IMG/VR virus record: IMGVR_UViG_3300028832_000096 | Strand: one strand, 5' to 3' | DNA: 64,000 nt | DNA from: a virus | Taxonomy: Duplodnaviria; Caudoviricetes | Part shown: piece after piece, positions 7,685-51,744 of the stretch | How the letters are laid out: each line of letters opens with the position of its first letter | Numbering within the stretch: the stretch's first letter is position 1 | Made by a program: the position numbers and the translations under genes | The notes under the pieces: generated by a model | Told to the model about the DNA's origin: nothing | Seen by the model: only the letters and a program-made list of their open reading frames with translations | The model's database searches: none

Positions 7685-7737
7685 TATGTTCTCCTTAAAT
7701 GAAATATAAAAGAGTGGGCAGTATATGTCCACTCTTT

Positions 7738-7746: not shown

Positions 7747-7762
7747 TTTATTTTAGTAAATG

Positions 7763-8224
7763 TTACAGCGTTCCTTTGTAAGCAAGATAGCATTCTGCAT
7801 CATATTCATCTAAATCATATGTATCTACATCTGGACCATATGCATCGTAGAGCTCCTTGCCGTAGCGAATCATTGCTTCTGGTGACCAATCTTCGTCGTC
7901 CCATTCGTCATCATAAAAGTAATTTCTTCCGATTCGGATTACGTCATCAGTTACATCGCATAACTCGTTGCCGACCACAAGACCTAAGAATTCATCATCA
8001 TTGAGTAATGAAATGATGTGATAAAGTTCACCATAACCTTCATCTGTAAATGAGCCTGGCTCGTCTGCATATCTTGTCTGATAGACACGCCATACCTGAT
8101 AATCCTCATATCCAGGAGGAAGTAACTGTGCAGTTAACTCTTCAGAATCATATGTTCCAAAACTAGAGGTAATATCTTTATAACACCTCTTTATAATTTT
8201 CTCCATTTTTTCTTGTCTGTCCAT
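7763..8224 (-). CDS. Acidic hypothetical protein
   Basis: Start moved to ATG 8224 (GAGG RBS, no overlap with folE); preceded by AACCTT motif. Confidence 0.65.
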   Translation of the reverse strand: MDRQEKMEKIIKRCYKDITSSFGTYDSEELTAQLLPPGYEDYQVWRVYQTRYADEPGSFTDEGYGELYHIISLLNDDEFLGLVVGNELCDVTDDVIRIGRNYFYDDEWDDEDWSPEAMIRYGKELYDAYGPDVDTYDLDEYDAECYLAYKGTL

Positions 8225-8267
8225 AAGTAATTCCTCTGATAATTTAGAATATCGTAATAAATTAAGG

Positions 8268-8894
8268 TTATCGAACAGATGATAAATGGAGCTCTTGTAC
8301 CTTGCCTTCAATCTCTTTACGTGCATCTGAGTCTTTGCGCAGCGCTGGTGATATGAAGGTTGCATCAGTTAATCCTTCGGACCTAGAACCTCTAGCACTT
8401 ACACAGCAATGATTCATTACAGAACGAACATAAACTCGGTTTGAACCTGTAGCTAACTGGATACATTTTGCAATATCTGCGTTAAGTTTTTCTTGAAGCT
8501 GAAATCTTTTAGCGCACATATCAACTATTCTAGGTATCTTGCTAAGTCCAATAACTCTATAACCTTCAGAATCATCTTTCCGATTCCAATATTCAGGAAT
8601 GTAAGCAACATAAACAGTTCCACTCATACTAGCCATATGGTGTTCGCAATGACTATAAACATTTTTTACTTCCTTAATTACAATTGAATCGTAACTTACA
8701 TTGAAATCTTTTCTAAACATTTTTGCGATTTCATCGTTAGTATAATCTTCGCCTTCAAGAAGTTCAGCCCAATACTTCGCTACTCGCTTAGGAGTTTCTT
8801 TGAGCCCTTCCCTTTCTACATCTTCACCCAAAGCAATAAGGAGATTTTTAACTGCCTCCTCTACCTTAGGCATATCAAGATTCTTATAACTCAT
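8268..8894 (-). CDS. folE: GTP cyclohydrolase I
   Basis: REGLKETPKRVAK, HCEHH, IGLSKIPR, LQE and CVSARG motifs; start at MSYKN. Confidence 0.92.
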   Translation of the reverse strand: MSYKNLDMPKVEEAVKNLLIALGEDVEREGLKETPKRVAKYWAELLEGEDYTNDEIAKMFRKDFNVSYDSIVIKEVKNVYSHCEHHMASMSGTVYVAYIPEYWNRKDDSEGYRVIGLSKIPRIVDMCAKRFQLQEKLNADIAKCIQLATGSNRVYVRSVMNHCCVSARGSRSEGLTDATFISPALRKDSDARKEIEGKVQELHLSSVR

Positions 8895-8895
8895 G

Positions 8896-9273
8896 TTATG
8901 CCTCCCAAGGATAAACAATCCATTTATTTTCTTTATATCGCATGAAGTAATCAGGAACTACGCAACTTGCTGTATTGTAATACATAGATGCAATCTTATA
9001 ACCTTTATTAGCCCAAGCTTTCGCAGTATCACCAGTGTCAATGATATCATCTACAACTAAACAGCCTTTCTGTGGAGCACCTAAGAAAGGCAAATTGTAC
9101 TTGTGAGATATAATAACTGCAAAGATTAATCCACCTCTAGGCGGACCATATACGCCTGTAAAGTTAGAACTAGAAATAAGAGGTTCTAGTAATGTGATAA
9201 AGGCATCGACATCATCCCAAGTTACTTTAACCTTTTCGACTGTCATATCACGCAAATCTCTTTCGTTTTCCAT
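8896..9273 (-). CDS. Type I phosphoribosyltransferase (xanthine/guanine PRTase-like)
   Basis: PRGG loop, PRPP-binding LVVDDIIDTGDT, C-terminal WIVYPWE. Confidence 0.85.
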   Translation of the reverse strand: MENERDLRDMTVEKVKVTWDDVDAFITLLEPLISSSNFTGVYGPPRGGLIFAVIISHKYNLPFLGAPQKGCLVVDDIIDTGDTAKAWANKGYKIASMYYNTASCVVPDYFMRYKENKWIVYPWEA

Positions 9274-9275
9274 GA

Positions 9276-10022
9276 TTAAACTCCTTGTTTATTACCCCAG
9301 ACTAATGTATGAATCTGAGGTAATATGTAAACATTTTCAAAATTGCTAGGGAATTGATTAATTCTATTTAACAATTCTTCATAATCAGATAAAACTCTAT
9401 CGCGAATAGATTCTTTAGTATCTACATCTGAATTACCTACGCTAAGATATAATCTAAGATTGATATTGTTATCTCTTTTATTTGTAAATTCATTTACGAA
9501 ATTTGCATAGTTTCTTGCAAATGTTATATCCTCTGCATTAAATACCGGAATCTTAATAGCAATAGTACGATTACTTTGATTATTGTTATTAATAAATTCT
9601 GTAATAGTATCATAAGTATCTAGCATACCGCTCGAAGGCGCTTTAGGACTAAATACTATTGTATCAATCATAGTTAACCAATCAGGAATTAAATCTCCTT
9701 GTGTTTCTATATCAACTAATATACCAAATGCCTTTAATTTGAATAATACATAAGTGAAATCATATAAACAGGGATTGCCTCCTGTAAGTACTATATGTTT
9801 ACAATTATCAGTAAGGCATTTATGAATAAGCAGCTGTGCAAGCGTTTCGGGTTCATATTGAATTACTTCACTTGCATTTCCATTCCAAGTATATTTACTA
9901 TCACACCAAGAACATTTAAAGCTACATCCCTTTACACGGACAAAGATGCATCTTGCACCTACATTAGGCCCCTCGCCTTGCAACGTAGGGCCAAATATCT
10001 CTACAATAGGAATTTTGCTCAT
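9276..10022 (-). CDS. queE: 7-carboxy-7-deazaguanine synthase (radical SAM)
   Basis: EIFGPTLQGEG, CxxxCxxCD (CSFKCSWCDS), TGGNP, LPQIH. Confidence 0.93.
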   Translation of the reverse strand: MSKIPIVEIFGPTLQGEGPNVGARCIFVRVKGCSFKCSWCDSKYTWNGNASEVIQYEPETLAQLLIHKCLTDNCKHIVLTGGNPCLYDFTYVLFKLKAFGILVDIETQGDLIPDWLTMIDTIVFSPKAPSSGMLDTYDTITEFINNNNQSNRTIAIKIPVFNAEDITFARNYANFVNEFTNKRDNNINLRLYLSVGNSDVDTKESIRDRVLSDYEELLNRINQFPSNFENVYILPQIHTLVWGNKQGV

Positions 10023-10387
10023 CAGTCCGGCTTCCTTTCATATGTAGCTATGTTTCCTTCGCTTTCCTGAACATCTACTCTACAACAATATCCTACATCG
10101 CAAAGTTCGTCTACTTTATCGCAAATCCACTTAGCAATATTTTCTGCAGTAGGGTTGATACCTGGAAGCAAATCATTAAGATATCCATGGTCTAAGAATC
10201 CATGAATTTCTTTCTTAACTTTTGCAAAGTCAACAATCATTCCATATTCTGTAAGCTTGTCAGCTTCGCAGTAAACTGTTATATACCAGTTATGACCATG
10301 AAGGCCTTGGCACTTTGATTCATAAGGCAGTGAAAGCTGATGACTGCCTGCAATTTCCATACGCTTGCTAATTCTCCATCTTTCCAT
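10022..10387 (-). CDS. queD: 6-carboxytetrahydropterin synthase
   Basis: CQGLHGHN, MIVDF, LDH, PTAENIA, ESE motifs. Confidence 0.93.
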   Translation of the reverse strand: MERWRISKRMEIAGSHQLSLPYESKCQGLHGHNWYITVYCEADKLTEYGMIVDFAKVKKEIHGFLDHGYLNDLLPGINPTAENIAKWICDKVDELCDVGYCCRVDVQESEGNIATYERKPD

Positions 10388-10390
10388 GGA

Positions 10391-11089
10391 TTAGTCCTCC
10401 TCATACTGAATAGGGTCTGTAGTATTGTTTGCTTTAAATGCTGCAATTCTATCTATGCAAGTTCCGCACTTTCCGCAGGCTTTATCTCCGCCTTCATAAC
10501 ACGACCAAGTTAATTCATAAGGAACATTCAAACTAAGCCCTGTTTTTACTACTTCTGATTTATTCATGTTAACCAGCGGAGCAACTACTCTTACTTTACC
10601 ATATGTTCCGATAACAATTGCAGTATTCATTGCTGAAGTAAATTCTTCACTACAATCGGCATAAGCTCTACCTGCGGCGTCATCTGCATGAGCGCCTAAA
10701 TAAATATCTACATCGTCATTAGGATAAATAGATTGAGCAAGAGCCGCTACAGCTGAAAGCATGAGGCCATTTCTAAAAGGAACATAAGTGCTAACTTTAC
10801 CTTCACCATTCTGTGCAATCTGGTCTGCATAACTCTGCTCAGGTATATCTTCAGTACTGTGAGCAAGTAATGAACAATTACTATACTGCAAAACATTTGA
10901 AAGGTCTAAAACATAATGATTTACTCCATAGTATTTTGCAATCTTATCTGCACATTCGAGTTCTTTAGAATGTCTTTGACCATAACTGACAGATACAGTG
11001 CTTACATTTTCTTTACCTAAACTCATAGCAAGGGCAACACAAGTAGTTGAATCTACTCCGCCGCTTGATAATACTAATGCTTTTTTCAT
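10391..11089 (-). CDS. queC: 7-cyano-7-deazaguanine synthase
   Basis: SGGVDS, YGQRH, TYVPFRN, YADC, TWSCY...CGKCGTC. Confidence 0.95.
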   Translation of the reverse strand: MKKALVLSSGGVDSTTCVALAMSLGKENVSTVSVSYGQRHSKELECADKIAKYYGVNHYVLDLSNVLQYSNCSLLAHSTEDIPEQSYADQIAQNGEGKVSTYVPFRNGLMLSAVAALAQSIYPNDDVDIYLGAHADDAAGRAYADCSEEFTSAMNTAIVIGTYGKVRVVAPLVNMNKSEVVKTGLSLNVPYELTWSCYEGGDKACGKCGTCIDRIAAFKANNTTDPIQYEED

Positions 11090-11404
11090 TTAATCCTCCT
11101 TTTCATATAATTCTGGAAACGCTAACATGATTAAATCTTCAATTCTATGATAAGTATCTGTCTGGCCATAGTATCCTGGTTTATATCTCTTATGAAGATG
11201 ATATACTGGAGACCCAGTTTTCTTACTATACCTACAAGGTCTAATTATTCTGGATTTATAATGTACTTCATGAATATCGCACTTGTGCGTTTTACCGTGA
11301 ATTCTGCTTCGAGTAACTACACGGCTAACACTTCTGACTCTGCCTATATTAGATACTTCATAAAGATTTTCATAATTAGGAATAGGACGCCAGACTTCTT
11401 TCAT
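11090..11404 (-). CDS. NUMOD4 domain protein (no HNH domain visible)
   Basis: EVWRPIPNYENLYEVSNIGRVRS NUMOD4 signature. Confidence 0.75.
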   Translation of the reverse strand: MKEVWRPIPNYENLYEVSNIGRVRSVSRVVTRSRIHGKTHKCDIHEVHYKSRIIRPCRYSKKTGSPVYHLHKRYKPGYYGQTDTYHRIEDLIMLAFPELYEKED

Positions 11405-11411
11405 ATTGACC

Positions 11412-11915
11412 TCACATATCAAATCTTATAGCACGATTACTTGCATCTCTGAGGGCGTCAAGCTGACGAGATTTTGCGTAATCTGCATAATCAAACTTAG
11501 GATTAGCCCAATTGACGAAAGGAAATATACTAATACCTCCTCTAGGTGAGAAAATACCTCTTACTTCGATGTACTTTGGGTCCATTAGTTTAATGAGGTC
11601 TTTCATTACGATATTCATACAGTCTTCGTGGAAATCACCATGGTTTCTAAAAGAGAAAAGATAGAGTTTAAGCGATTTACTTTCTACCATGTTTTCATTA
11701 GGAATATAGCTAATAATTACTTTAGCAAAATCAGGCTGGTGTGTCTTCGGACAAAGACTTGAAAATTCATAAGCATCAAAACTTACAACATAATCATTGT
11801 CCTGATGTTTGTTGATAAATGTTTCAAGTACTTCAGGGCAATAATCTGTAGGATACTTTGTATTCTGATTTCCGAGCAGTGATACATTACCGAGTTCTTC
11901 AGTATTTCTTGACAT
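11412..11915 (-). CDS. queF: NADPH-dependent preQ0 reductase (type I)
   Basis: [11 protein letters not shown] catalytic Cys/Asp, ESKSLKLY QueF motif, FHE, PRGGI. Confidence 0.95.
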
Positions 11916-11935
11916 ATGATTCTCCTTGTGAAAAA

Positions 11936-11970
11936 TTAAAAGGTGTAACCTATAAATATAGATTACACCT
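11936..11970 (-). terminator. Terminator upstream of queF (candidate riboswitch expression platform)
   Basis: Minus strand AGGTGTAATCT...AGGTTACACCT followed by TTT. Confidence 0.65.
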
Positions 11971-11991
11971 ACTATAACGATTATTCGTGTT

Positions 11992-12047
11992 GTGTAACCT
12001 GTTATTTTTGTTTAATGAGGGGCTGTCAAGGTAGTTACAAAACCCTC
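11992..12047 (-). ncRNA. Putative preQ1-I-like riboswitch aptamer no. 2 (transcriptional, upstream of queF operon)
   Basis: Stem GAGGG/CCCUC, loop UUUUGUAACUACCUUGACAGC, A-rich tail AUUAAACAAAAAUAAC, then AGGUUAC able to pair with loop GUAACU; loop resembles aptamer no. 1. Confidence 0.55.
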
Positions 12048-12055
12048 TAAAATAT

Positions 12056-12781
12056 TTAAGCAGCTTTATGTGCGTCGATATAAGCTTGACCTACTTTCTC
12101 CTTATCCCATCTACGAACAATTACAAGTCCAAGAGGCGAGAAAATAAGTTCTGCAATAAGCTCAAACAAACCGCCGAGAATAGCTGTTCCTACGCAAGTA
12201 AGAATAGGAAGCGATGTACCCCAATAGATAGGAGCAAAGATGCAATAAACACCTGCGATAAACAAGAAGTTATCAATGGCCTGACCTACAAATGTCGAGC
12301 CCCAACTTCTCATGAAGAAAGCAATACCACTATCTGGATTCTTCTTAAATAACTTGCCGATAGCTGCATTAAGCAAACTGTTGATAATTCCTGAAACAAC
12401 AAATGCTACTGTAGAACAAAGTACGATAAACCAAACACTACCAAAGATATAATTGAATTCGGTGTAAGGGTCTTGAGTAGGAATTGCAGCTACAATTGCG
12501 AGGAATACTACAGCAAAAAGATTGCCTACAGCAGAAAAGATGTTGAGCATGATTGAAGCTCTTGCACCAAATCTCTTTGTTACTGTGTCCATGCAAAGGA
12601 ACGGAAGCCAAGAAAGAATAAATCCACCAGTTACTGCAACATTAAAAGCATTAAAGATAATCTTACTAGCAGCCAAGTTCATAAGAACTGTACCAAGAAC
12701 AAATGCTACTGTTACAAGAGCGGGGATGTTATTCAACAGCAATTTATAGTCCGCTATCAAAGACTTTGTTTTTGAAACCAT
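12056..12781 (-). CDS. yhhQ: Queuosine precursor transporter (YhhQ/VUT family)
   Basis: Multiple TM helices; MNLAASK, D..T..FG...S and RS.GST.VGQ.IDN motifs; adjacent to que genes. Confidence 0.85.
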   Translation of the reverse strand: MVSKTKSLIADYKLLLNNIPALVTVAFVLGTVLMNLAASKIIFNAFNVAVTGGFILSWLPFLCMDTVTKRFGARASIMLNIFSAVGNLFAVVFLAIVAAIPTQDPYTEFNYIFGSVWFIVLCSTVAFVVSGIINSLLNAAIGKLFKKNPDSGIAFFMRSWGSTFVGQAIDNFLFIAGVYCIFAPIYWGTSLPILTCVGTAILGGLFELIAELIFSPLGLVIVRRWDKEKVGQAYIDAHKAA

Positions 12782-41860: not shown

Positions 41861-42577
41861 TTAACTACATTCTGAGCACCATTTACAATGGCATCTAGTG
41901 TCTTTCAGGAAATAGTTATTGTAGTGTTTATACTTTTTGAATCGACTGGGACTGCCCTGCCTATAAGATATTGAATTAAAGTTCATCACATTATGAGGAA
42001 TCTCATTATTATGAACCATTCGATATGCTAACAGTATCGCTAATTGAGCTTTTTTGTCATTTGCATTTCCGTGAATTTCTGTTTTCTTTTGTCCTCGCAT
42101 TGTAAACTGGCCACCTTGATACATTACTTTTTTAATTGTATCAGGATACTGTTTACAATATTTCCTATTCCACACTACAGCCGCTACTAATATTTTGTCC
42201 TGCATTTTTGGACCTGCTTCACGATTAACTAATTTGACAAAGGTCTTGAAGGTATTCTTATTCATATGAAGCAGTTTTGCCTTTTGCTTCAATGAAAGCG
42301 CGTTAAGTTCGCTTTCAGTCATTGTGTAGATTGTTTTCTTAACCGGTGCTTCAATTTCATCCGGAAGGTCTGCAACAAGTTCTGCAGAGTTCTCATGTCT
42401 CGTGTTTTCTTCTAATTTTTTGTTACTTTCACTATATTTGCTACCATCTTCGTCAACACAACTAATTTGATAAGATATTATAGTACGGTCTAACCTTTCT
42501 GGGGGTTGTGGTGCTTTTACTATGGCAACAAACATCGGAAATACTGCCAATAGTTCTAGAACAGTATTAAACATCAT
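41861..42577 (-). CDS. SleB/Hydrolase_2 family cell wall hydrolase
   Basis: LVNREAG...VAAVVWNR...YPDTIKKVMYQGGQF; N-terminal hydrophobic anchor. Confidence 0.8.
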   Translation of the reverse strand: MMFNTVLELLAVFPMFVAIVKAPQPPERLDRTIISYQISCVDEDGSKYSESNKKLEENTRHENSAELVADLPDEIEAPVKKTIYTMTESELNALSLKQKAKLLHMNKNTFKTFVKLVNREAGPKMQDKILVAAVVWNRKYCKQYPDTIKKVMYQGGQFTMRGQKKTEIHGNANDKKAQLAILLAYRMVHNNEIPHNVMNFNSISYRQGSPSRFKKYKHYNNYFLKDTRCHCKWCSECS

Positions 42578-42630
42578 AGTTCTCCTTTTGTAATAAAGTG
42601 TGTGGAAATAGGGAGGAAAGAAAAAGAAAA

Positions 42631-42826
42631 GCCATTTATTCGACTAGGAGCAAAGAAATAAATGGCGAAAGACTTTACTCGAAAGTTCGCTTTATTTTCA
42701 CGGAGCGTAACTCATGGTTACATAATACACAGAGCGAACTTACAAGAGCTGTTGCTATTGGCACACGTATGCCTGAACCATGTGCCATAGAATATAACGA
42801 TTCAATTAGCGATAAAAGGCAGCTCT
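42631..42826 (-). ncRNA. Unknown structured ncRNA, copy A
   Basis: Pseudoknot and long hairpins conserved with compensatory changes in copy B (49812-49980). Confidence 0.65.
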
Positions 42827-42854
42827 GTAATTAGTTAAGGTTTTGGCTGTATTT

Positions 42855-44453
42855 TCAAACCTCATATTTACATTTATTTGGGAACTTTTCTTCAAGCAAT
42901 TTAAGTAATTCTTCGCGTGTCTTTTTATAATCTTTCACTTTATCTGAGTCATTTAAACAAACTACCTGTAACATATCACTAAATAATGCCCTACGTATAT
43001 CCGTCATACTTTCGTGCATATCTATGTACATGTAACCACAGATGTCATTAACATAATTGTCTGTGTAATATTCATAATAAGGATAAATATATTGGTTCAG
43101 ATTCTTAGGCATTCTAAGCCTAGAAACGCTACGCTCTATCGCAGCTTTGCAAGCTTCACCGACAATTTCCGTTGTTGACTTACGCATAGGCATGATGCCA
43201 TGTTCAGGGCATATTAACTTACCAACAGGATACTTTTCTTTGTGGAAGGTGTTAGCAATTAAATCTAAACCATTTCGACAATGAACTCTATACAGGTTGT
43301 TAGTAGGATAGGACTCATGACGTAAGAAGTCGATATGCGGTTTACCATCAGTAAAAAAATCTCCAACAACTAATGGATTTATTGGAAACATATCATCGTT
43401 GAAGTACAAGAAATATTCTGATAGGTCAGGAATGTTATACAAGAAACATTCGATAGTGCAACTATTGAATGTAGGCAAAAACTGAGCAGGTATGAAGTCC
43501 CTATGGTAAACAATTTTAACATTTTCTTGATTAAGCCATTCAGGCGCTTGACTTTCACGAGCGAGGAGAAGTATTACATTTCGGACAAAAGGCATGTTGT
43601 CTGAAATACTTCTAAGTAAATATTTCAATGAACCCCAATCTCTAAATCTTACATTGCTTACTGTATAGATACCTGTAGTGGTTGTATAGTCCTTCATCCA
43701 CAATTTGTCTCTAGCATTTACATAAGGAATAACAACATCAATATCAGATATATCGCTACCTTCATAATGCTGTCGTTGTGTTGCTTTGATTAAAGCAGAA
43801 GTATATCTCCGCATGTAATTCCAGTTGTAAATTTGTTCTTTTGCCCAACTAGAAGGACATTGTCCAGGACCTACATACTTGAACGAAGTTTCAGTCACAC
43901 AGTCCTTTGGAAAATCAAACGCTTTATCTGGAAATTGCTGAAAACACATTGCAACAAACAAATCGTCTTCAAAGCCTTGACTGATTTCTGGATTCATGTC
44001 AGGCATATCAATTTGACTGTATATCTCCTTTGATACAGCAAGTAGCATCAAAGGGCATGCGGTATGTCGTATAACACCTATACCGCCAGGATGATTATCT
44101 ATTTCTGAAAGGTATATAGACGGGTCATCACACTGAATCATACCGTCATCATCTAGCATTATAAGATAATCATAATTTGATTTAATAAACTGTTTTCTAA
44201 GCTCTCTGCGTGCTCCTAGTATTCCGAGTTTATCATATCTTAGAATTTTCAGTTTGTTTTTAATTTCAGGTGGTTGATAGTCTTGCCAATTCTGAGCAAT
44301 TATTAGAATATCAACTTCCGGCCATAATTCCGAGAGCTTACATAGTAATTCGGAACATCTCCTACTTCTCTCACGACGTGTTTCAATATGATACTCAGTA
44401 TCATTGTTAGGGAAGTAAGATACAATTCCGAATACTTTCTTAAGTGATTGCAT
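42855..44453 (-). CDS. GT-A-like domain fused to Stealth family hexose-1-phosphate transferase (paralogue 1)
   Basis: YLIMLDDD; CR1 IDVVIPYVN; CR2 RF...LKYLLRSI...LPTFNS..IE...FLYFNDD; CR4 VCLND. Confidence 0.85.
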   Translation of the reverse strand: MQSLKKVFGIVSYFPNNDTEYHIETRRERSRRCSELLCKLSELWPEVDILIIAQNWQDYQPPEIKNKLKILRYDKLGILGARRELRKQFIKSNYDYLIMLDDDGMIQCDDPSIYLSEIDNHPGGIGVIRHTACPLMLLAVSKEIYSQIDMPDMNPEISQGFEDDLFVAMCFQQFPDKAFDFPKDCVTETSFKYVGPGQCPSSWAKEQIYNWNYMRRYTSALIKATQRQHYEGSDISDIDVVIPYVNARDKLWMKDYTTTTGIYTVSNVRFRDWGSLKYLLRSISDNMPFVRNVILLLARESQAPEWLNQENVKIVYHRDFIPAQFLPTFNSCTIECFLYNIPDLSEYFLYFNDDMFPINPLVVGDFFTDGKPHIDFLRHESYPTNNLYRVHCRNGLDLIANTFHKEKYPVGKLICPEHGIMPMRKSTTEIVGEACKAAIERSVSRLRMPKNLNQYIYPYYEYYTDNYVNDICGYMYIDMHESMTDIRRALFSDMLQVVCLNDSDKVKDYKKTREELLKLLEEKFPNKCKYEV

Positions 44454-44478
44454 TGTTAACTAAGGAGTTCTCCTAGTG

Positions 44479-44835
44479 TTACTCCTCTTCCTCGGGATAA
44501 TCTTTAATTATCCATCTGAGAAGCTGAGTTGTGTCCTTATTGCAAAGCGGGCAGATGCCATTGATGCTATCAACTTCCTGCTCAGATGCAATCATAGCTG
44601 AAATGAAAATACCTTTGCAGTTATCGCATTCTGCGATAAGATGGTTTACAATATTGTTATCGACGTCAATAGCAACGTCATCTTCCTCAATATTTTCGCC
44701 CTCTTCAATAGCTTCCTCTTCTTCTACGTCTTCACCAATAGTTTCCTCAGGTGCATCCATTACGTCATCAAAGAGAGACTCGTCTTCTGAAAAGTCGTCA
44801 TCCGCAGCAAAAATAGGTCTTTTTGTAATCTTCAT
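44479..44835 (-). CDS. Acidic Zn-finger protein with MKITKRPIFAA leader
   Basis: Asp/Glu tract then CDNC...CPLC; GGAGG RBS; AACCTT upstream. Confidence 0.7.
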   Translation of the reverse strand: MKITKRPIFAADDDFSEDESLFDDVMDAPEETIGEDVEEEEAIEEGENIEEDDVAIDVDNNIVNHLIAECDNCKGIFISAMIASEQEVDSINGICPLCNKDTTQLLRWIIKDYPEEEE

Positions 44836-44892
44836 TTGTTATGCCTCCATACATACTGAACCAATCAGTTAGGATAATTGTATAAAAGGTTA

Positions 44893-45816
44893 TCAAACTG
44901 CAACTACTCTATTGAAAATCTGATTAAGTGCTACAGAAAGAAGTGTAGTATTTACAAACATTGCGTCTGCTGTAGGCTTACGCTGACTTACATGATGAGT
45001 AAGATAATCGGCCGCACCGTTGATAACACCCCAAGCGGTTCCATTGAAGTTCTGATTGTCATCACTCTTGTAGCATGAAAGGAACTCCGCTCTGTTCATT
45101 TCAAAGTTAGTTACCTGACGATTAGTCATCTTCTCAGGGTCATACTTGAATACTTCGTTGAAAATCTTGATAATCTGGTCCTGAGAAATCTTCTTCTTAG
45201 CAAGCTCCTCGGCCGTATCTTCAAATGTAGACATATAAGTTGCTACATCATGCATCATGTTTCTTGCAGTAACAAGCCTTGTATCCATCTTAGACGAATG
45301 AACGATTCTTACTGTGTTAGATGCTTCTCTGAAAGCAAGGTTAAACTGATTCTGGCAAACAATTCTCAAAGGAGAAATTGTAGCTTTGACGGAATTCATA
45401 CCGTCATGAGAATTCTGGAATATGATATAAGGAGTGATAGCATCACCAAGAAGTGTGATATCAGGAATCTTAGCGATAATGTAAACAAGGCCTTTAGTGC
45501 TTCCATTAGAAATTTCGCCTGCTTTAACATACTGGAAACCTTCGTTGTCGTTTCCGATATAGTCGATAAAGTTGAAGGCGTCTCTATTCTGGCAGATTTC
45601 GTACTTAGATGAAACTGCGTTGTAAACAAAGCCAGTAGACTCATTAACAGTAAGAACCTTATCCGGATAGTCGTAATAAGTTTCACCGTCAGGTCCAAGA
45701 TACTTGATACCTTTCTTAATGACATTGTAATTCAGCCCTGCTGCATTGAGGACTTCTTCAGAAGTCTTGCAAGCTGAAATGTCGGTTCCGATTGATGCAA
45801 AAGTTGATGTACGCAT
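44893..45816 (-). CDS. DUF932/DUF945 family phage/plasmid-like protein
   Basis: VSSKYEICQN..AF, NSHDG, P.RIVCQN, GTAWG..N...DY..H. Confidence 0.85.
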   Translation of the reverse strand: MRTSTFASIGTDISACKTSEEVLNAAGLNYNVIKKGIKYLGPDGETYYDYPDKVLTVNESTGFVYNAVSSKYEICQNRDAFNFIDYIGNDNEGFQYVKAGEISNGSTKGLVYIIAKIPDITLLGDAITPYIIFQNSHDGMNSVKATISPLRIVCQNQFNLAFREASNTVRIVHSSKMDTRLVTARNMMHDVATYMSTFEDTAEELAKKKISQDQIIKIFNEVFKYDPEKMTNRQVTNFEMNRAEFLSCYKSDDNQNFNGTAWGVINGAADYLTHHVSQRKPTADAMFVNTTLLSVALNQIFNRVVAV

Positions 45817-45930
45817 ATTGATGCCTCCTTTAGATGAGTGTATTTTTCTTCTACATCGTACATAACGATTCAAATGATACTAAAAATAAAAGAGGCCTAG
45901 TGGCCTCCTTTAATATAAATACATACATAA

Positions 45931-46068
45931 TTATTGCTGAGGTTCAGCCGGTTTTTCTTTGATACATCTGCCTAATACACAAGTATGACGATACAAATCT
46001 TTTGTTATTTTTTCGCTATAATGATACTGGCATTTCTTGCAGTCATCTGTGAATAATTTATTGTTCAT
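45931..46068 (-). CDS. Small Cys-rich protein (not in ORF track)
   Basis: MNNKLFTDDCKKCQYH... 45 aa followed by GAGGCC hairpin at ~45890-45910. Confidence 0.4.
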   Translation of the reverse strand: MNNKLFTDDCKKCQYHYSEKITKDLYRHTCVLGRCIKEKPAEPQQ

Positions 46069-46327
46069 AGAATGTGTTGAATTCACTAGTAACCGCACCA
46101 TCTTTCATTGCTGCTTGATAGATTTCGCAACCATCTTCTTCTGCGATATAAGCAGCTAAGAATGTATCTAAATCATTTGCTTTAGTATGTAAAGTTGTTT
46201 TATGGGCTTCCCAGTAAGAGTTTAACCAATCACCGGAAACTACAAAATTGACTTCTCCAATAGGGTCATCGGAATCTTTGGTATAAATCCACATTCTATT
46301 TAATTCATACTCAAATTTGACAGTCAT
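46058..46327 (-). CDS. Hypothetical protein
   Basis: AGGAG RBS. Confidence 0.65.
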   Translation of the reverse strand: MTVKFEYELNRMWIYTKDSDDPIGEVNFVVSGDWLNSYWEAHKTTLHTKANDLDTFLAAYIAEEDGCEIYQAAMKDGAVTSEFNTFYEQ

Positions 46328-46341
46328 AGAAATCTCCTGTA

Positions 46342-46785
46342 TTAGGCTTCATCAGATTTAACTGAAACATCGTCTGCTATTTCTTCGGGCTCACTTGCAG
46401 GTTCTGGTTTACGAGATACTAATATGTGGGCGGCTGTAAGAAGATAAGCACAATACATATTGATATCAAATGTGTTTCCAGGTTTAATAGATGCAAACAG
46501 CATCTTAGCAGCATTTGTTGTCATTTCTCCTAAAGTCATTCCATTAGGAATTTTTACATCTTCAGGAATACCGAGGATAGTATCAACTAAATCTACTTCA
46601 GCATAACTGCAAGCGTAGATTACAGAATGATAAAGAGAAATGACATCTCCGTTATTTTGAAAGTTTGCAAGTTCAATCATCGCACGACGGCCAGATGCTT
46701 TCTGCTCGTTGCTAATGAAATTGCCCTCATCGTCTTTGATTGCATCAGGCATGTAAGGAATGAGCATGTCGTAAAAAAGTTCCAT
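46342..46785 (-). CDS. Hypothetical protein
   Basis: AGGAGG RBS. Confidence 0.7.
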   Translation of the reverse strand: MELFYDMLIPYMPDAIKDDEGNFISNEQKASGRRAMIELANFQNNGDVISLYHSVIYACSYAEVDLVDTILGIPEDVKIPNGMTLGEMTTNAAKMLFASIKPGNTFDINMYCAYLLTAAHILVSRKPEPASEPEEIADDVSVKSDEA

Positions 46786-46808
46786 AGTGTCCTCCTATTT
46801 ATTAAATA

Positions 46809-48638
46809 TTATTTAGTGTTTCCAAACAAAATCTCAAATAATTCAGGATTATTCTTAAATGACAATTTATTATCGACTATATACTTTGCAATTCCGTCTT
46901 TGTCCTGAATTAATTTATATACTTTCTCATCTACGGTATCTTTAGTAATGATGCTGTAGATGTTTACAGTACTATTAGTACCTGCCCTATGACATCTGTC
47001 TTCTGCTTGCTCCATCGTGGCAGGGTTCCAAGGTAAGTCGTAGAATATTACATTATTTGCAACAGTAAGTGTATGTGATACTCCTAATGCTCCGATAGTA
47101 CCTATCATGATTTTGCGCTCAGGGTCTTGTATAAACTGGTGTTTCTGCTCTTCTCTATCATTTGTATTAACACCAGTATAACAACAAATGTTCTTATGAT
47201 ACAAAGCAAGAAAGCGATAAATAGTCCTGAGCGACTCAACCCAGTTAGAAAATATTACAACTTTCTCACCGCTCGAAACAATTGTATCTACTAAGTCCAG
47301 CAATCTTGTCATTTTAGAGTTCTTAGTTAGATATGCTCTATCAATTTTAAGAGATGTATCAACTAATTCGGGACTTCCATTTACTTGGCGAAGTTTCAAT
47401 AACCGAACCATAGGATTAACTGCGGTCAATATTTCTTCTCTATGCGCTTTAGTATCAGCTAATACTTCTTCATAGAGTTTTGCTTGATAAGTAGTATTTT
47501 CAACATATTCAATTGTATGTATTTTAGGCGGAAGGTCTAATACATCTTTCTTCAATCGTCTTAGCATATTATTCTGCAAGAGATGTTTAAGTTGCGGGAT
47601 ATTCTTATACGCAATTATATCGTGATTACCGAAACCGCCATATACACAGAAATTCTGACACCACAACTGATAATTGTTAAATGTATGACCATCTACAAGT
47701 TTAAGCGGAGTAAATACATCTGTAGGTTTGTTTACAATAGGTGTGCCGGTCATAGGTAACCAAAGAATCTTAGACCCTTCAGTATCCTTTTTCAACTTAA
47801 GTACTTGACGGCCTTGTTTAGAAGAGGGAGAAATTCCTCTATGACATTCATCTAAAATAACCATCCCGATATAACCTTTGTTGAAAAGTTTTGTAAGCTG
47901 CTCTCTAAACAGATAATGTCTGTCTTTGCGCATGTGTAAAACTTCAACATTTGTTACTAAAAAGAAAGGAAGCGGTGGTTGGTCCTTCTTTCCATACATA
48001 TGGCCACAAATCAAATCATCTAACTTCTCTTTACTGCCACCATCATATCTTACAGTTCCATCACGCTTCAGGCGAGAACCTAAAAGATAAGGTACTTCTT
48101 GTCCATTAGAATGTTTCTTGATGTCCTCTATCCAGTTAAATTTAGCTGAGTTTACACAAGCAATAATTAAACAGTGTTTTATTTTATTAACTTTGCGATT
48201 ATACAATGCAAGATTCATCGCTTGCAAGGTCTTTCCAAGACCAGGTTCATCTGCAAGTATGAACCCGCTAAACAGACCTCTATTCTGTCTATCGATAGAA
48301 TACCGCATAAAATCAAGCTGATGATTAAATAAATGATAACCATCTTGAACACTTAGCGGTACTTTAGATAAATCAATATTAGGAATTGCAGATTCTGGTG
48401 TAGCATCAATATTAGCGTTTTGATTTATATGCTCAGCAGAATAAACTTGAAGTTGATTTTCATATTGCGAACCACGCAGTTGTGAAATTAAGAAACCTAA
48501 TCTGTCAAGTGGAATAGTCCAATACTTATTATCGTTATCCCATCTACGACCCGGAACGCTTTTTATAATATAAAGCAATTGCGGGTTATATGGAAATCTA
48601 ATAATATAGACATCTTGATTTTGTACTGCAGTTATCAT
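46809..48638 (-). CDS. SNF2 family helicase with HARP-like N-terminus
   Basis: ILADEPGLGKT, LDECH, MTGTPIVN, MLRRLK, KVVIFS, WNP...QAEDRCHRAG. Confidence 0.92.
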   Translation of the reverse strand: MITAVQNQDVYIIRFPYNPQLLYIIKSVPGRRWDNDNKYWTIPLDRLGFLISQLRGSQYENQLQVYSAEHINQNANIDATPESAIPNIDLSKVPLSVQDGYHLFNHQLDFMRYSIDRQNRGLFSGFILADEPGLGKTLQAMNLALYNRKVNKIKHCLIIACVNSAKFNWIEDIKKHSNGQEVPYLLGSRLKRDGTVRYDGGSKEKLDDLICGHMYGKKDQPPLPFFLVTNVEVLHMRKDRHYLFREQLTKLFNKGYIGMVILDECHRGISPSSKQGRQVLKLKKDTEGSKILWLPMTGTPIVNKPTDVFTPLKLVDGHTFNNYQLWCQNFCVYGGFGNHDIIAYKNIPQLKHLLQNNMLRRLKKDVLDLPPKIHTIEYVENTTYQAKLYEEVLADTKAHREEILTAVNPMVRLLKLRQVNGSPELVDTSLKIDRAYLTKNSKMTRLLDLVDTIVSSGEKVVIFSNWVESLRTIYRFLALYHKNICCYTGVNTNDREEQKHQFIQDPERKIMIGTIGALGVSHTLTVANNVIFYDLPWNPATMEQAEDRCHRAGTNSTVNIYSIITKDTVDEKVYKLIQDKDGIAKYIVDNKLSFKNNPELFEILFGNTK

Positions 48639-48744
48639 TAATTACACCTTGTACTACCTTGAGATTTAAGCGAGATTTAATTTTTGCTAATTTACTACAT
48701 AAAGTATAGTAAATCTATAATAGCGCCTTAGCTCGCCTAAGTTA

Positions 48745-49398
48745 TCACCAAACGAAGCTATGGTTAAATTCTTCGCCATTATCAATGATGATATCTTGTG
48801 CTGTGCAGCTCTTATTTATTACTGCGAGGAAATAAATCCAATCGGCTGCTTCATCTGAAGTAGCCCATTTATGCAATGGCGTCATACTCATTATCTTATT
48901 CCATTTCTTAGTGTCATTAATTACATTCCAGTTAACAGGAGATAAAACACCGCCAAAACTTAAACTATTGCAAGTAGCGCCATACTTAGCAATTTCTTTC
49001 GCTGTGTATTTTGTATAAGCAATTACGCCACCTTTGCTTGCTACATACTCACCAAAATCTGCACCTGTTGTTCCAGAAGCAGCTGCTTGATTAACTACTG
49101 ATTTAATATCTTTGTTATTGAGTGCATACTTTTCAGTACAGTTGATTAGACCTCTAAGGTTTACATCAATATCAGTTTCCGTACCTTGCACACCTGCATT
49201 GTTGATTAATATATTTACTTCTTTAATATCAGGGAGTTCGTCTTTCTTGGAAACATCAGCAACTACATGCGTATAGTTATCATCAATGATGTTAGACGGA
49301 GCTACATCAATTCCGATAACTACATGACCCTCTGATAAAAACTTAATAGCAGTTTCTCTGCCCATTCCGCGAGATGTGCCGGTTATTACTACGTTCAT
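48745..49398 (-). CDS. Short-chain dehydrogenase/reductase
   Basis: TGTSRGMG, INNAG, YVASK. Confidence 0.9.
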   Translation of the reverse strand: MNVVITGTSRGMGRETAIKFLSEGHVVIGIDVAPSNIIDDNYTHVVADVSKKDELPDIKEVNILINNAGVQGTETDIDVNLRGLINCTEKYALNNKDIKSVVNQAAASGTTGADFGEYVASKGGVIAYTKYTAKEIAKYGATCNSLSFGGVLSPVNWNVINDTKKWNKIMSMTPLHKWATSDEAADWIYFLAVINKSCTAQDIIIDNGEEFNHSFVW

Positions 49399-49408
49399 AA
49401 GTAACTCC

Positions 49409-49702
49409 TTAGTTAGGTAAAATCAATTTTGATTTCTTGAGGAGGGCCTGGTGAACAAGTCCTTCTAATCTCCTTAATGCTTCTGCATCATAATCTTGAA
49501 GCGCAACTGCAATCTTATCATTAGTTTCAGGCAAACAGAGGCACTTACATCCATTGTCCTGACAATAACTAATTAAATCTTGCAATGCGTCTGATGTCAT
49601 ATCAGGGTCTTTTGTTGAATCATATGTAACGAAGATAAATTCACCTTCCTCACACTTGATTAGTTTCTTCAATACGTCGTTGTTGATTTCTTGTATTTCC
49701 AT
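49409..49702 (-). CDS. Hypothetical protein
   Basis: AAGGAG RBS. Confidence 0.7.
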   Translation of the reverse strand: MEIQEINNDVLKKLIKCEEGEFIFVTYDSTKDPDMTSDALQDLISYCQDNGCKCLCLPETNDKIAVALQDYDAEALRRLEGLVHQALLKKSKLILPN

Positions 49703-49729
49703 AAGTAACTCCTTATAGTAAATCTATTT

Positions 49730-49803
49730 TGGCTGAGGTACGTGGAGTCGAACCACGATTCACAGAGTCAAAGTCTGCTGTACTACCGTTATACGATACC
49801 TCA
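49730..49803 (-). tRNA. tRNA-Gln(UUG)
   Basis: TGAGGTA acceptor stem, anticodon loop CTTTGAC, GGTTCGACTCC T arm, encoded CCA. Confidence 0.92.
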
Positions 49804-49811
49804 GTATATGA

Positions 49812-49980
49812 CTACTTATTCGACAAGGGATACAGAATAAGTAGACGAAGACTGTATCCGAAAGTTCGCTTGAGGTTTTCTCGGAGCACATACCGGAAAT
49901 TACAGAGCGAGCTTACAAGACCTGCATGTCTGAAACTCTCCCAACAAGGAGTTACACCTTGTAAGCGTTTGCCTGGGAGA
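49812..49980 (-). ncRNA. Unknown structured ncRNA, copy B
   Basis: Homologous to 42631-42826 with covarying stems; ends a few nt before tRNA-Gln 5' end. Confidence 0.65.
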
Positions 49981-50154
49981 TATATAAATTGCCTTTTGAA
50001 ACAAGATAGGGTGGTGGTTGTCTTTCGTAATTGTTCCTTGCGAAACTATCTTGTAACTTTAACCGGCAGCTCAATAGAATATTCATGAAAGGCGAGAAGA
50101 GCTTCGGAGGGCAACTATTCACTTGTAAAGGTTCAGATACATTACATAACGATT

Positions 50155-51744
50155 CTAATTTTCATACTTGCATTTTTCAGGAAATTTAGTTTCAAATATA
50201 GAAACCAATTCTCGCTGAACTGTATCATAATCGGCTACTGTTCCCATATCATTTATACAAACAATGCAAATATGTTTGCTATTTAATATTATATGACGAA
50301 TATTAAATAAGTTGTCATCAATTTCAGTATACACATAAGGGCAAAAATCATCAATGTAGTTACCTGTGAAGAATTGATAGTAATGATAGACATACTGATT
50401 GATGTTTTGCGGTGCTCTAGTTTGTGTTATGCTCTTTTCCAATACATCCTTTAGGGACTTGAATACATTCTTTACGCTAGATTTTAACATAGGCATAGCG
50501 CTGTGTTCAGTAACTATCAATTCGTTTTCATCATAATTAGGTAAATTGAGCATTGTTGTAATTGCGTTTATACTAGACCGACATTCCCAACTAAATGCAT
50601 CTTGTGATTCTAAATTACTATGCTCTTTAAATTGCAATAAGGGCTTTTCATCTACAAAGAAGTCAGACGATACCATATCATCTATCGGAAAAATATCATC
50701 ATTGAAATATATAAATTTCTCTGATAGTCCTTTGATATTAGATAAGAATGCTTCTATTGTGCAGCTATTGTATGTAGGTAGAAATTTTTCTGGTATGAAG
50801 TCTTTGTGGTAAACTATTGTAACATTAGTAATCCATTCAGGTACTTGGGTTTCATCTGAAACGATTAGTACAACATTGCGTACAAAAGGCATATATCTAT
50901 CTATACCTCTTAATAAATACTTCAGCGTGTTCCATGACCTAAATCTGTTAGAATATAATTCTGATTGTTTAGTATTTTTGATATATGCTTCTTGCCATCC
51001 AGATTTAGACGAATCTACATAAGGAATTACAATGTCGATGTCTTTCTCGTTGCTACAAGGAGCTCTTTTGTGTTTAACAGCTTGAATATATGCATTAGAT
51101 ATACAGTTCATATAGTTCCAATCAAGCTGAATATCATCTAACCAAGTAGAAGGACAACTATGATTTGGTTTATAAGAAAGGTCTGAAATACAGCCTTTAG
51201 TGAAGTCAAATGCTTTATTAGGAAATAACGCAAAACAAGATTCGGCAAATACTACATCGCCAAATCCTTCGCATTTTTCTGCATCAATATCTGGATAATC
51301 GATTAGGCTATAAATAGATTTAGAAATAGCTAAAAACGTCATAGGATGTCCTATGCGACGAACTAATCCAACCCCATCAGGGTGGTTATCAATTTCTTTA
51401 ATATAAACCGAGGGGTCTTTGCATGATATAACAGTATCGTCATCTAACATAATTAGATAATCGTATTCTGATTCTAAGAACTCCTGCCTGAGTACTTTTC
51501 TTGCACCTACTATACCAAGCCGTTTTATCTTAGAATTAACTATGCGAAGTTTGTTTTGTATTTTTGGAGGTTTATAATCTTCCCAATTCTGTGCAATTAT
51601 AATGATGTCGATAGTAGGCCATAAACTGCTCAAAGATAAAAGCAATTCGGAACATCTCTTTGTCCTTACACCTCTAACATACTTATGGTAATCAGTATCT
51701 GGGTCTGGAAAATAAGAGATTATTCCGAATACTTTCTTAATCAT
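50155..51744 (-). CDS. GT-A-like domain fused to Stealth family hexose-1-phosphate transferase (paralogue 2)
   Basis: Same architecture as 42855-44453: KVFGI.SYFP, YLIMLDDD, IDIVIPYVD, LPTYNS..IE, YFNDD, VCIND, FPEKCKYE. Confidence 0.85.
   Translation of the reverse strand: MIKKVFGIISYFPDPDTDYHKYVRGVRTKRCSELLLSLSSLWPTIDIIIIAQNWEDYKPPKIQNKLRIVNSKIKRLGIVGARKVLRQEFLESEYDYLIMLDDDTVISCKDPSVYIKEIDNHPDGVGLVRRIGHPMTFLAISKSIYSLIDYPDIDAEKCEGFGDVVFAESCFALFPNKAFDFTKGCISDLSYKPNHSCPSTWLDDIQLDWNYMNCISNAYIQAVKHKRAPCSNEKDIDIVIPYVDSSKSGWQEAYIKNTKQSELYSNRFRSWNTLKYLLRGIDRYMPFVRNVVLIVSDETQVPEWITNVTIVYHKDFIPEKFLPTYNSCTIEAFLSNIKGLSEKFIYFNDDIFPIDDMVSSDFFVDEKPLLQFKEHSNLESQDAFSWECRSSINAITTMLNLPNYDENELIVTEHSAMPMLKSSVKNVFKSLKDVLEKSITQTRAPQNINQYVYHYYQFFTGNYIDDFCPYVYTEIDDNLFNIRHIILNSKHICIVCINDMGTVADYDTVQRELVSIFETKFPEKCKYEN

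Follow-up and report, generated by a model that had tools for sequence, protein, structure and literature searches.

A tRNA-linked non-coding RNA family with a double-pseudoknot fold in rumen and gut phages

Two intergenic regions in a 64,000-nt stretch of tailed-phage DNA (the window; IMG/VR record IMGVR_UViG_3300028832_000096) hold similar sequences that an initial annotation described as two copies, A and B, of an unrecognised pseudoknotted non-coding RNA, and the locus raises the question of what this RNA is and what it is likely to do. Each element listed for the two copies was found at its noted place. A 19-mer occurs twice in the window, in both copies, against 0.01 occurrences expected by chance, and the stems differ yet pair, as had been claimed: between A and B five stem pairs are altered on both sides while the linkers are identical. 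Judged on their sequences, A and B are paralogues of one RNA family. The extents needed some correction, since the spans 42631-42826 and 49812-49980 hold for the copies, whereas family-wide homology is shorter (42626-42752 and 49806-49925); likewise, the segments called invariant are present in both copies, but CGTWTGCCTG and TTTTCWCGGAGC are shared by A and B only and not across the family. The parts of the two copies are as follows.

42626..42752, minus strand: conserved core of copy A, 127 nt (R1 and R2 matches of 161 and 106 bits), running P0a, L1', Pa, P0b, variable inner hairpin, Pb, UC linker, S2a, L1, S1a, S2b, L3, S1b
42749..42752, minus strand: A, 5' strand of P0, ACAG, pairing with CUGU at 42729-42732
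42733..42741, minus strand: A, 5' strand of hairpin P, AAGUUCGCU, pairing with AGCGAACUU at 42683-42691
42692..42728, minus strand: A, variable insert between P0b and Pb, a small hairpin GUAAC/GUUAC plus GCUCCGUGAAAA
42673..42680, minus strand: A, 5' strand of the pseudoknot stem S2, GAGUAAAG, pairing with CUUUGCUC at 42648-42655
42667..42672, minus strand: A, U-rich loop L1, UCUUUC
42657..42666, minus strand: A, 5' strand of S1, GCCAUUUAUU, pairing with AAUAAAUGGC at 42631-42640
42641..42647, minus strand: A, loop L3, CUAGUCG, 7 nt, ending in the invariant UCG
49806..49925, minus strand: conserved core of copy B, 120 nt (118 and 115 bits with the two models), parts in the same order as in A
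49922-49925 with 49902-49905, minus strand: B, strands of P0
49906..49914, minus strand: B, 5' strand of hairpin P, AAGCUCGCU, pairing with AGCGAACUU at 49862-49870 with a C.A mismatch
49852..49859, minus strand: B, 5' strand of S2, GGAUACAG, pairing with CUGUAUCC at 49828-49835
49836..49844, minus strand: B, 5' strand of S1, CUACUUAUU, pairing with AAUAAGUAG at 49812-49820

A covariance-model search, the check that the initial annotation had asked for, was carried out with two models (R1 and the final model, R2). It recovered seven further distinct members in related phage contigs, bringing the total to nine (73-161 bits against the two models, 73-130 bits against R2), with covariation above that of shuffles; no additional match above noise emerged from the ~1.5 Mb searched. 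The RNA is still recognised by no known family, as Rfam returns only the neighbouring tRNA-Gln. In the window and five related loci, tRNA alone passes the gathering threshold of Rfam 15, whose families include riboswitches, small ribozymes, tmRNA, pRNA, GOLLD/ROOL and raiA; at E<=10 the best matches in both intergenic regions score 12-24 bits against thresholds of 38-65. An Rfam hint to BMV3_UPD-PK1 (17 bits, E=0.69) is noise and maps to sequence beyond the core. Within the element no cloverleaf or tRNA-like domain is detected by ARAGORN or by the Rfam tRNA model, which call the adjacent tRNA genes only, and nothing pointing to a role in packaging was found. A protein-coding remnant was rejected: ORFs overlapping the element have no Pfam match at E<=1, and the gaps in the A/B alignment are 8, 2 and 1 nt long, not multiples of three. 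The family is a structure-constrained non-coding RNA held by no catalogue.

Its fold comprises two consecutive H-type pseudoknots, PK-A (P0 with P) followed by PK-B (S2 with S1). The pseudoknot first drawn, whose stem1 and stem2 are S1 and S2, is confirmed in its interleaving, with both helices covarying. To it is added a new 5' helix, P0, which interleaves with hairpin P ahead of the S2/S1 knot and, being a further covarying helix, makes the pseudoknot a double one. In PK-A, 3-6 bp of P0 are interleaved with the 9 bp of P, in which a C.A mismatch is conserved and the inner hairpin varies; in PK-B, S2 (8 bp) is interleaved with S1 (9-11 bp), and the UC linker between the two pseudoknots is invariant. 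Covariation was computed on alignment A7, with nine sequences and 31 pairs, of which 95.7% are paired. Compensatory double changes occur in 14 of the 31 pairs (37 cells), and the covariation score of 0.426, compared with 0.192 for shuffled alignments, is reached by none of 500 shuffles; in a control with slid partners pairing falls to 36-53%.

The helices contribute to this signal in different ways. P0 (helix 1) is 97% paired with double changes in two of its four pairs, and by eye reads GUCG/CGAC in L065 and GCAG/CUGC in L215. Hairpin P (helix 2, nine pairs) has the consensus AAGYUCGCU/AGCGAACUU; its pair 13/112 is GC in five sequences and AU in four, pair 18/107 is CG, UG or UA, and position 15/110 is the C.A mismatch in seven of the nine. 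All eight pairs of S2 (helix 3) are formed in all nine sequences (100%), half of them with compensatory changes, and six of the ten pairs of S1 (helices 4 and 5) show double changes, the junction-adjacent U-A pairs being invariant while the distal pairs covary freely. The insert between P0b and Pb ranges from 31 to ~63 nt, with differing inner hairpins. L3 fits C-W-W-G-U-C-G in seven members and reads UUGAUCG in L078a and UUUAUCG in L215, so that the UCG end is common to all nine.

A family of ~190-200-kb rumen and gut phages, uncultivated and with Firmicutes-like genes, has a repertoire of tRNA-linked non-coding RNAs that includes this one. For seven of the nine members a tRNA or tRNA-like unit on the same strand is no more than ~35 nt away. 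In five members 8-10 nt separate the end of the 3' pseudoknot from the 5' end of a tRNA, namely tRNA-Gln(UUG) in four cases (copy B, L078a, L205a and L211) and a tRNA-like unit in the fifth (L065); L078b and L205b begin ~30 nt after tRNA-Gln, and L019 begins 35 nt after tRNA-Leu. A single tRNA in L078 is flanked by two copies of the RNA. The settings in other phages are varied: beside tRNA-Gln or tRNA-Leu, within ORF-free RNA arrays, or before a cell-wall hydrolase gene. The element is optional in the family, with 0-2 copies per genome, and is missing from the same loci in close relatives; it is therefore dispensable, which speaks against an essential role. In the window the cores are flanked by the following features, an exact AATCGTTAT motif accompanying both copies.

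42794..42802, minus strand: promoter-like motif AATCGTTAT, 42 nt upstream of the A core
42760..42786, minus strand: hairpin GGCACA...UGUGCC between this motif and the A core, probably the 5' end of the transcript, to judge from the position of the motif
42600..42630, minus strand: pyrimidine/U tract UUUUCUUUUUCUUUCC..., directly 3' of S1 in A
50146..50154, minus strand: promoter-like motif AATCGTTAT, directly after the Stealth stop codon and 220 nt upstream of the B core
49926..50145, minus strand: non-coding 'Y' unit upstream of the B core, after the promoter-like motif
49804..49811, minus strand: 8-nt spacer UCAUAUAC from S1 of B to the tRNA 5' end
49730..49803, minus strand: tRNA-Gln(UUG) with encoded CCA, directly downstream of B (ARAGORN; Rfam 59.3 bits)

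Compared by eye, the 'Y' unit forms a structured unit of its own with a homologue at L211:840-993; the two have the blocks GCCCUCCGA, CGGUUAAAG and CAAAAGGCAAWUUAUAU in common. The U tract is terminator-like in the A-type copies only, namely A and its orthologue L215, which has UUUUUCUUUUGUUU at the same site; the remaining members have no U tract.

Family, fold, positions and absence from catalogues are matters of observation; from them we infer how the RNA may be transcribed, processed and stabilised, whether it holds a triplex, and any action in trans. We tentatively favour, at a little under an even chance, the reading that A and B, as a pair of paralogous genes or modules, give rise to an RNA of ~125-150 nt that is released along with tRNAs as a nuclease-resistant small stable RNA. 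Phage promoters would transcribe it together with the tRNAs and other RNA units, from which it would be freed as a discrete species. For five of the nine members the geometry fits a 3' end generated by RNase P, which would cut where the tRNA begins, 8-10 nt downstream; in A-type copies a U tract follows S1 instead. For A, the reading as a discrete unit draws on the promoter-like motif 42 nt upstream, the 5' hairpin and the U tract past S1. The AU-rich 3' pseudoknot would then cap the 3' end against 3' exonucleases, and the invariant single-stranded CUUGU, the UCG loops and the C.A mismatch would form a probable surface for contact with a partner.

Such a cap may include a triple helix, with the U-rich L1 running along the major groove of S1 and candidate U.A-U triples on invariant U-A pairs. 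L1 starts U-[C/A]-U-U-[U/C] in all nine members and U-N-U-U-U in eight, and the S1 pairs 138/165, 139/164 and 144/162 are invariant U-A. In B alone, position 5 of L1 is a C and the pair 137/166 is C-G, a combination that would give an isosteric C+.G-C triple, while position 2 of L1 (C or A) would make no canonical triple. The U.A-U triplex is possible, as judged from this invariance and a single covarying event.

The most serious alternative, which is nonetheless unlikely, is that the double pseudoknot remains attached to its neighbouring transcript as a cis-acting leader or punctuation module. There it would either stabilise the RNA, by capping the 5' end of the hydrolase or 97-aa mRNA that follows or the 3' end of the message that precedes, or direct the processing of the polycistronic precursor. 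Four of the nine members stand directly before a protein gene (a hydrolase in A and L215, a 97-aa gene in L078b and L205b), and such positions fit a leader equally well. The distance to the RBS is 10-50 nt in A, L215, L078b, L205b and L019 (10 nt for the 97-aa gene in L078b and L205b; ~40 nt to a small ORF in L019), the element always lies in a same-strand polycistronic context, no separate promoter lies between copy A and the hydrolase start, and the order RNA-then-hydrolase is kept in two phages whose hydrolases are 71% identical. However, the downstream partner varies between tRNA, tRNA-like unit and three unrelated ORFs, the RBS is never within the fold, and relatives that lack the element have these genes too; the strong conservation of the single-stranded loops, moreover, suggests that the element is specifically recognised and is no generic stabiliser.

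Two further readings are improbable. One sees the element as a ligand-sensing riboswitch or attenuator, in which a triple-helix-type pseudoknot binds a small molecule as in SAM-II or preQ1-II, and formation of S1 plus the U tract in A-type copies would stop transcription ahead of the hydrolase gene. The U-rich loop over an AU-rich stem, the succession of S1 and U tract in A and L215, and the presence in relatives, downstream of their tRNA-Gln locus, of a gene for AdoHcy hydrolase would suit such a device; yet no expression platform is conserved (the U tract is missing from seven of nine members, and in no member is an RBS sequestered), in several cases a tRNA comes next, L078 has a copy on either side of one tRNA, and the Rfam riboswitch models give no match even at E=10. 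The other, equally improbable, takes the RNA for a self-cleaving ribozyme of a new class, which would cut the phage polycistronic RNA beside tRNAs. Small ribozymes are common in phage DNA, and the element has the kind of pattern seen in Twister and HDV-like ribozymes, in that its double pseudoknot is compact, its junction nucleotides (UC, UCG, CUUGU) are invariant, a non-canonical C.A is conserved and a peripheral hairpin varies; against this, known ribozyme models give no match, no cleavage site is indicated, RNase P and RNase Z already account for processing beside tRNAs, and ~130 nt exceeds the size of most small ribozymes.

The RNA is most likely read on the minus strand. The initial annotation had favoured this strand by context and called the G-U evidence mixed, and both statements stand: in all nine members the RNA points the same way as the tRNAs, ORFs and RBSs next to it, while 264 of 276 cells are paired in the sense and 260 of 276 in the antisense orientation, so that pairing itself barely favours the minus strand. 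That the functional strand is instead the plus strand, the element being an antisense RNA or a DNA/ssDNA structure, is very improbable. With pairing nearly equal and folding z-scores similar on both strands, the frequent C.A at P position 4 would there become a G.U wobble. On the sense strand C.A mismatches are concentrated, seven of ten in one column, and G.U pairs are spread over seven columns; the perfectly paired S2 would on the plus strand gain four mismatched cells in three columns and P0 five. An antisense unit would also need its own promoter, in the face of nine out of nine copies co-oriented with tRNAs and genes, and the promoter-like motif upstream is specific to the minus strand, where all 11 exact copies in the window lie, the majority with an RBS and start codon 15-40 nt downstream.

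A Stealth_CR2 protein does precede both copies, as annotated, but the suggestion that the RNA is partnered with these glycosyl-phosphotransferases (the two paralogues in the window are 48% identical), or is leftover homology of a duplicated Stealth-plus-3'-flank segment, has the slightest chance of all and is largely refuted by distribution: no such RNA lies behind six Stealth orthologues (L006, L007, L008, L216, L217 and L218; 58-69% identity), none of the seven members elsewhere adjoins a Stealth gene, and leftover homology fails to account for 14 compensatory pairs.

Small stable RNAs inside the tRNA clusters of phages T4 and T5 offer a precedent for the preferred reading as a discrete RNA. 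T5 RNAIII, RNAI, RNA1, RNA2H, RNAIV, RNA2 and RNAX and T4 rnaC/rnaD (species 1 and 2 RNA) are non-coding, ~100-170 nt long and, as here, found within or next to phage tRNA genes that have the same orientation, and their function is likewise unassigned. According to the record annotation, the T5 RNAs rnaIII and rnaX abut the 5' ends of tRNA-His and tRNA-Arg, and rna2H lies 20 nt from tRNA-Ala. There is, however, no homology in sequence or structure and the host phages are unrelated; R2 has no match at the annotated stable RNAs of T5 (20000-69000) and T4 (68000-77000), the single match in these regions (10.8 bits, E=0.54) falling at a terminator region. The element described here differs further in being optional and in occurring also away from tRNAs.

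In topology PK-B resembles the triple-helix H-type pseudoknots of telomerase RNA, SAM-II and preQ1-II, which have a 5' stem, a U-rich loop 1 and an AU-rich second stem; both also have U-A pairs that do not vary and a helix junction with hardly any nucleotides. It differs from them in having no Rfam match, no expression platform and a loop 3 that is CUUGUCG rather than A-rich. Tandem H-type pseudoknots directly before a tRNA-shaped element are found in the 3' UTRs of TMV and BMV as well; these, however, are RNA viruses of plants, in which the elements act in translation and replication. The 3' module of MALAT1 and MEN-beta consists of an ENE triple helix followed by the tRNA-like mascRNA, which is cut by RNase P (PMC8457004, PMC4836648). 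The phage RNA would follow the same logic, with a compact structure in which a U-rich strand would lie over an A-rich tract and, next to it on the 3' side, a tRNA-shaped substrate of RNase P that would define the 3' end. The eukaryotic module uses a stem-loop ENE to clamp an A-tract at the extreme 3' end, whereas the phage element has an H-type pseudoknot with a putative triplex, a tail of 8-10 nt and genuine tRNAs downstream, and the relation, as far as such a likeness goes, is one of analogy, not homology.

The two related RNAs that the initial annotation had picked out, with stems that differ in sequence yet keep pairing, belong to a family of double-pseudoknot RNAs that is real and backed by covariation. 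The family appears to be undescribed, and no account of it turned up in a literature search. Every listed stem and linker is present in copies A and B, and a shared 19-mer occurs exactly twice in the window against 0.01 expected. Rfam recognises tRNA alone at gathering thresholds and noise only at E<=10. Because gap lengths in the alignment of A with B are 8, 2 and 1 nt and no Pfam family matches the ORFs that overlap the copies, the region is non-coding. All window genes around the two copies lie on the minus strand:

41861-42577, minus: 238-aa Hydrolase_2 cell-wall hydrolase
42626-42752, minus: core of copy A, in the 277-nt gap between the hydrolase and Stealth genes
42855-44453, minus: 532-aa GT-A/Stealth protein (sugar-transfer enzyme)
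49409-49702, minus: 97-aa protein of no known family
49730-49803, minus: tRNA-Gln(UUG)
49806-49925, minus: core of copy B, in the gap between tRNA-Gln and the second Stealth gene
50155-51744, minus: 529-aa Stealth paralogue

Beyond the tRNA-Gln of copy B follow the 97-aa ORF, a short-chain dehydrogenase (SDR) gene and a SNF2 helicase gene. Among INPHARED phages, blastn found no match to the window and tblastn none to the Stealth protein; many relatives of the window proteins occur on contigs of ~190-220 kb in ENA, Logan and JGI metagenome assemblies, and among these records are some with a rumen-type sample label or with a place in a Clostridia or Bacteroidales bin. In some relatives of 46809-48638 an intein carrying an endonuclease (HNH or DUF559) splits the SNF2 helicase gene, and in some an AdoHcy hydrolase gene lies between the SDR and helicase genes; the window has neither there.

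Covariance-model searches, seeded with A, B and the near-identical relative L005, covered loci around homologues of Stealth and of the 97-aa neighbour together with matches from degenerate pattern scans. They yielded seven further distinct members, at related phage loci (L-numbers):

L019:123-269: one member, 35 nt 3' of tRNA-Leu
L065:1080-1229: one member, within an ORF-free tRNA/RNA array
L078:7597-7723 and 7833-7967: two members (a and b), either side of tRNA-Gln
L205:140-274: one member, with a further copy's 3' end at L205:1-30, either side of tRNA-Gln
L211:994-1122: one member, 9 nt 5' of tRNA-Gln
L215:4892-5027: one member, on a contig in a Clostridia MAG

The L215 member is an orthologue of copy A, in which the pyrimidine tail is kept and followed by the hydrolase at 71% identity. 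This 17-kb contig (JAZLCB010000067.1), which carries the phage hydrolase, a tRNA-Gln, an ORF of SNF2 length and the RNA, is probably phage DNA that ended up in the bin of a bacterial genome, and that bin may be a hint of the host. L078 is a complete 200-kb IMG/VR phage with no copies beyond the two listed. It was the sole find of the tighter IMG/VR patterns; scans of IMG/VR DNA with blocks invariant between A and B gave only chance matches within coding regions (L001, L002, L004), and at least 120 stretches matched one over-loose pattern, where 80 loci among the matches listed were scanned and none fitted the model. In L008, an unfiltered model search of the ORF-free array found no divergent copy above noise. 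Two segments, GCUCCGWGAAAA and CAGGCAWACG, were rejected as family motifs, being common to A and B only.

The fold was counted on a nine-sequence alignment (A7), with a structure specified by the analyst. Its 31 pairs are 95.7% paired, with changes to both partners in 14 of them (37 cells). Covariation scores 0.426, compared with 0.192 in shuffled alignments (0 of 500 shuffles as high), and sliding the partners by 1-3 columns lowers pairing to 36-53%. The stems of the initial annotation contribute six compensatory pairs in S1 (10 bp), two in hairpin P (9 bp) and four in the interleaved S2 (8 bp), which is paired in all cells of the nine sequences. An additional helix, P0, forms between 3-6 nt directly 5' of a YUUGU loop and the nucleotides right after the 5' strand of P, with strand pairs among members of ACAG/CUGU, GCCG/CGGU, ACGG/CCGU, GUCG/CGAC and GCAG/CUGC. 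Since P0 interleaves with P, the RNA consists of two H-type pseudoknots in a row, with an invariant UC between them. The conserved loops are a 7-nt NNYUUGU, a 7-nt L3 that ends in UCG in all members and a U-rich L1; a variable insert of 31 to ~63 nt with unrelated hairpins separates P0 from the 3' strand of P. Pair four of P (A7 columns 15/110, corresponding to window positions 42738/42686 in A and 49911/49865 in B) is a C.A mismatch in seven of the nine members and U-A in copy A and L211; its neighbouring pairs are invariant. The mismatch may serve as a recognition point or form an A+.C wobble by protonation. A nested alternative helix in some MFE folds, L1' (CUUGU)/S2a, reaches 7 bp in L078a and 3-4 bp elsewhere without covariation, and was treated as incidental. 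GUCGAA is complementary to the T-loop of the window tRNA-Gln (UUCGAC), but L078, whose T-loop is UUCAAAU, lacks this match, which was therefore dismissed as a coincidence.

The recurrent neighbour of the RNA is a tRNA. The last S1 pair lies 8-10 nt 5' of tRNA-Gln in B, L078a, L205a and L211, and 8 nt 5' of a tRNA-like unit in L065, while L078b and L205b are placed ~30 nt 3' of tRNA-Gln, with their ends ~10 nt short of the 97-aa gene's RBS. The RNA is optional in the phage family. L203 and L204 have tRNA-Gln and a 96-aa gene without it, and the RNA unit found upstream of copy a in L078 directly abuts the tRNA in L204. The unit before tRNA-Gln in both L078 and L204 reads ...GGUAGUAACAGUCYURGGUGAACYGGCAAGCCGAUAUGUGCCCAAUGCUUUUA. 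ORF-free arrays of 1-2.5 kb in relatives (L078:5506-7985, L008:1-2260, L065:780-1660) contain a few tRNAs and unmatched units that are apparently structured RNA; Rfam finds tRNAs only in them. Elsewhere in L078, at 2896-2976 beside tRNA-Leu, ARAGORN predicts a tRNA whose anticodon has four bases (tttc); it may be frameshift-suppressor-like or unusual.

The 97-aa protein, whose gene is almost always directly 3' of a phage tRNA-Gln and 5' of an SDR gene, keeps 63-83% identity across more than 70 clusters, with C17, C47 and C54 invariant and C52 nearly so. It was rejected as an RNA-binding partner: it is also found without the RNA, and the confidence of its AlphaFold2 model (mean pLDDT 64.8) is too low to support a fold search. 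A 511-aa amidase-signature enzyme was likewise rejected as a phage GatA linked to tRNA-Gln, scoring 210 bits against the NCBIfam gatA cut-off of 481. Its gene adjoins FolE, QueE and QueC in a 7-deazaguanine gene set (6197-12781, minus):

6197-7732, minus: amidase-signature enzyme
8268-8918, minus: FolE
9276-10022, minus: QueE
10391-11089, minus: QueC
12056-12781, minus: queuosine-precursor transporter

In the most likely reading, the RNA would be a discrete small stable RNA freed from tRNA-containing precursors, the 3' end being cut by RNase P in tRNA-linked copies and formed by the S1 hairpin and a U tract in A-type copies. Copy A also comes with its own promoter-like motif and 5' hairpin. 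A plausible alternative, to which we give a minor share of the probability, is a leader or stability module acting in cis. In composition the 3' pseudoknot resembles triple-helix pseudoknots: L1, with the pattern U-N-U-U-U, would lie parallel to the A-rich 3' strand of S1, and the S1 U-A pairs facing L1 are invariant while distal S1 pairs covary. Copy B alone has C at the fifth L1 base and C-G at the matching S1 pair, a single event that, judging from sequence, would keep an isosteric C+.G-C triple. A more elaborate reading, distinctly improbable as a whole, would combine a MALAT1-like triple-helix pseudoknot before a genuine tRNA with an exonuclease-proof 3' end made by RNase P and a long-lived regulatory or decoy RNA, or else see a new self-cleaving ribozyme class punctuating tRNA/ncRNA operons. 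A new self-cleaving ribozyme is also an unlikely rival by itself, as is a riboswitch, against which speaks the lack of an expression platform.

The minus strand is very likely the functional one. Pair counts (264 vs 260 of 276 cells) and MFE z-scores do not decide the strand; the initial preference for minus holds on context. The nine members all have the orientation of the tRNAs, ORFs and RBSs next to them, and a promoter-like motif, AATCGTTAT, is confined to this strand, with 11 exact copies in the window (~0.5 expected; first bases 57689, 51962, 50154, 45870, 42802, 41823, 41067, 33233, 12893, 11982 and 7746). Were the plus strand functional, the perfectly paired S2, and also P0, would gain scattered C.A mismatches. 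The motif, usually followed by TA-rich bases and then an RBS and start codon 15-40 nt on, has the look of a promoter specific to the phage, its -10 being extended (AATCG-TATNNT). Its distance from the downstream core is 42 nt for A and 220 nt for B. These 220 nt (49926-50145, minus) are another conserved non-coding unit with a counterpart at L211:840-993, sharing GCCCUCCGA, CGGUUAAAG, CAAAAGGCAAWUUAUAU and a closing UGCC/GGCA helix; Rfam matched no family to it.

The partnership with the Stealth enzymes (48% identical to each other) that the initial annotation had proposed is contradicted by the distribution of the RNA: in six loci with Stealth orthologues (L006, L007, L008, L216, L217 and L218) the next gene begins 14-184 nt on and none has the RNA, and the association is specific to the window genome.

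By context, the closest precedent is found in the stable RNAs of the T5 and T4 tRNA clusters, whose function is left unassigned by annotation. The final covariance model (R2) does not match them, so the likeness is one of kind and not of family. To our knowledge, the T4 and T5 RNAs have gone unexplained for decades, and the present family offers a second, independent system for asking what stable phage RNAs do. Large phages hold kilobases of ORF-free, tRNA-linked sequence that are blank in current catalogues, and the relatives examined here have arrays of 2-2.5 kb with no Rfam match besides tRNAs; the family is a well-defined, covariation-backed unit of this dark matter. If it is only a dispensable leader module, it would be a modest addition to the orphan phage RNA motifs. 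Its arrangement is similar in logic to the MALAT1 ENE and mascRNA (PMC8457004), and if the 3' pseudoknot is an RNase P-matured, triplex-capped end, it would provide a bacterial-virus parallel to the MALAT1 mechanism.
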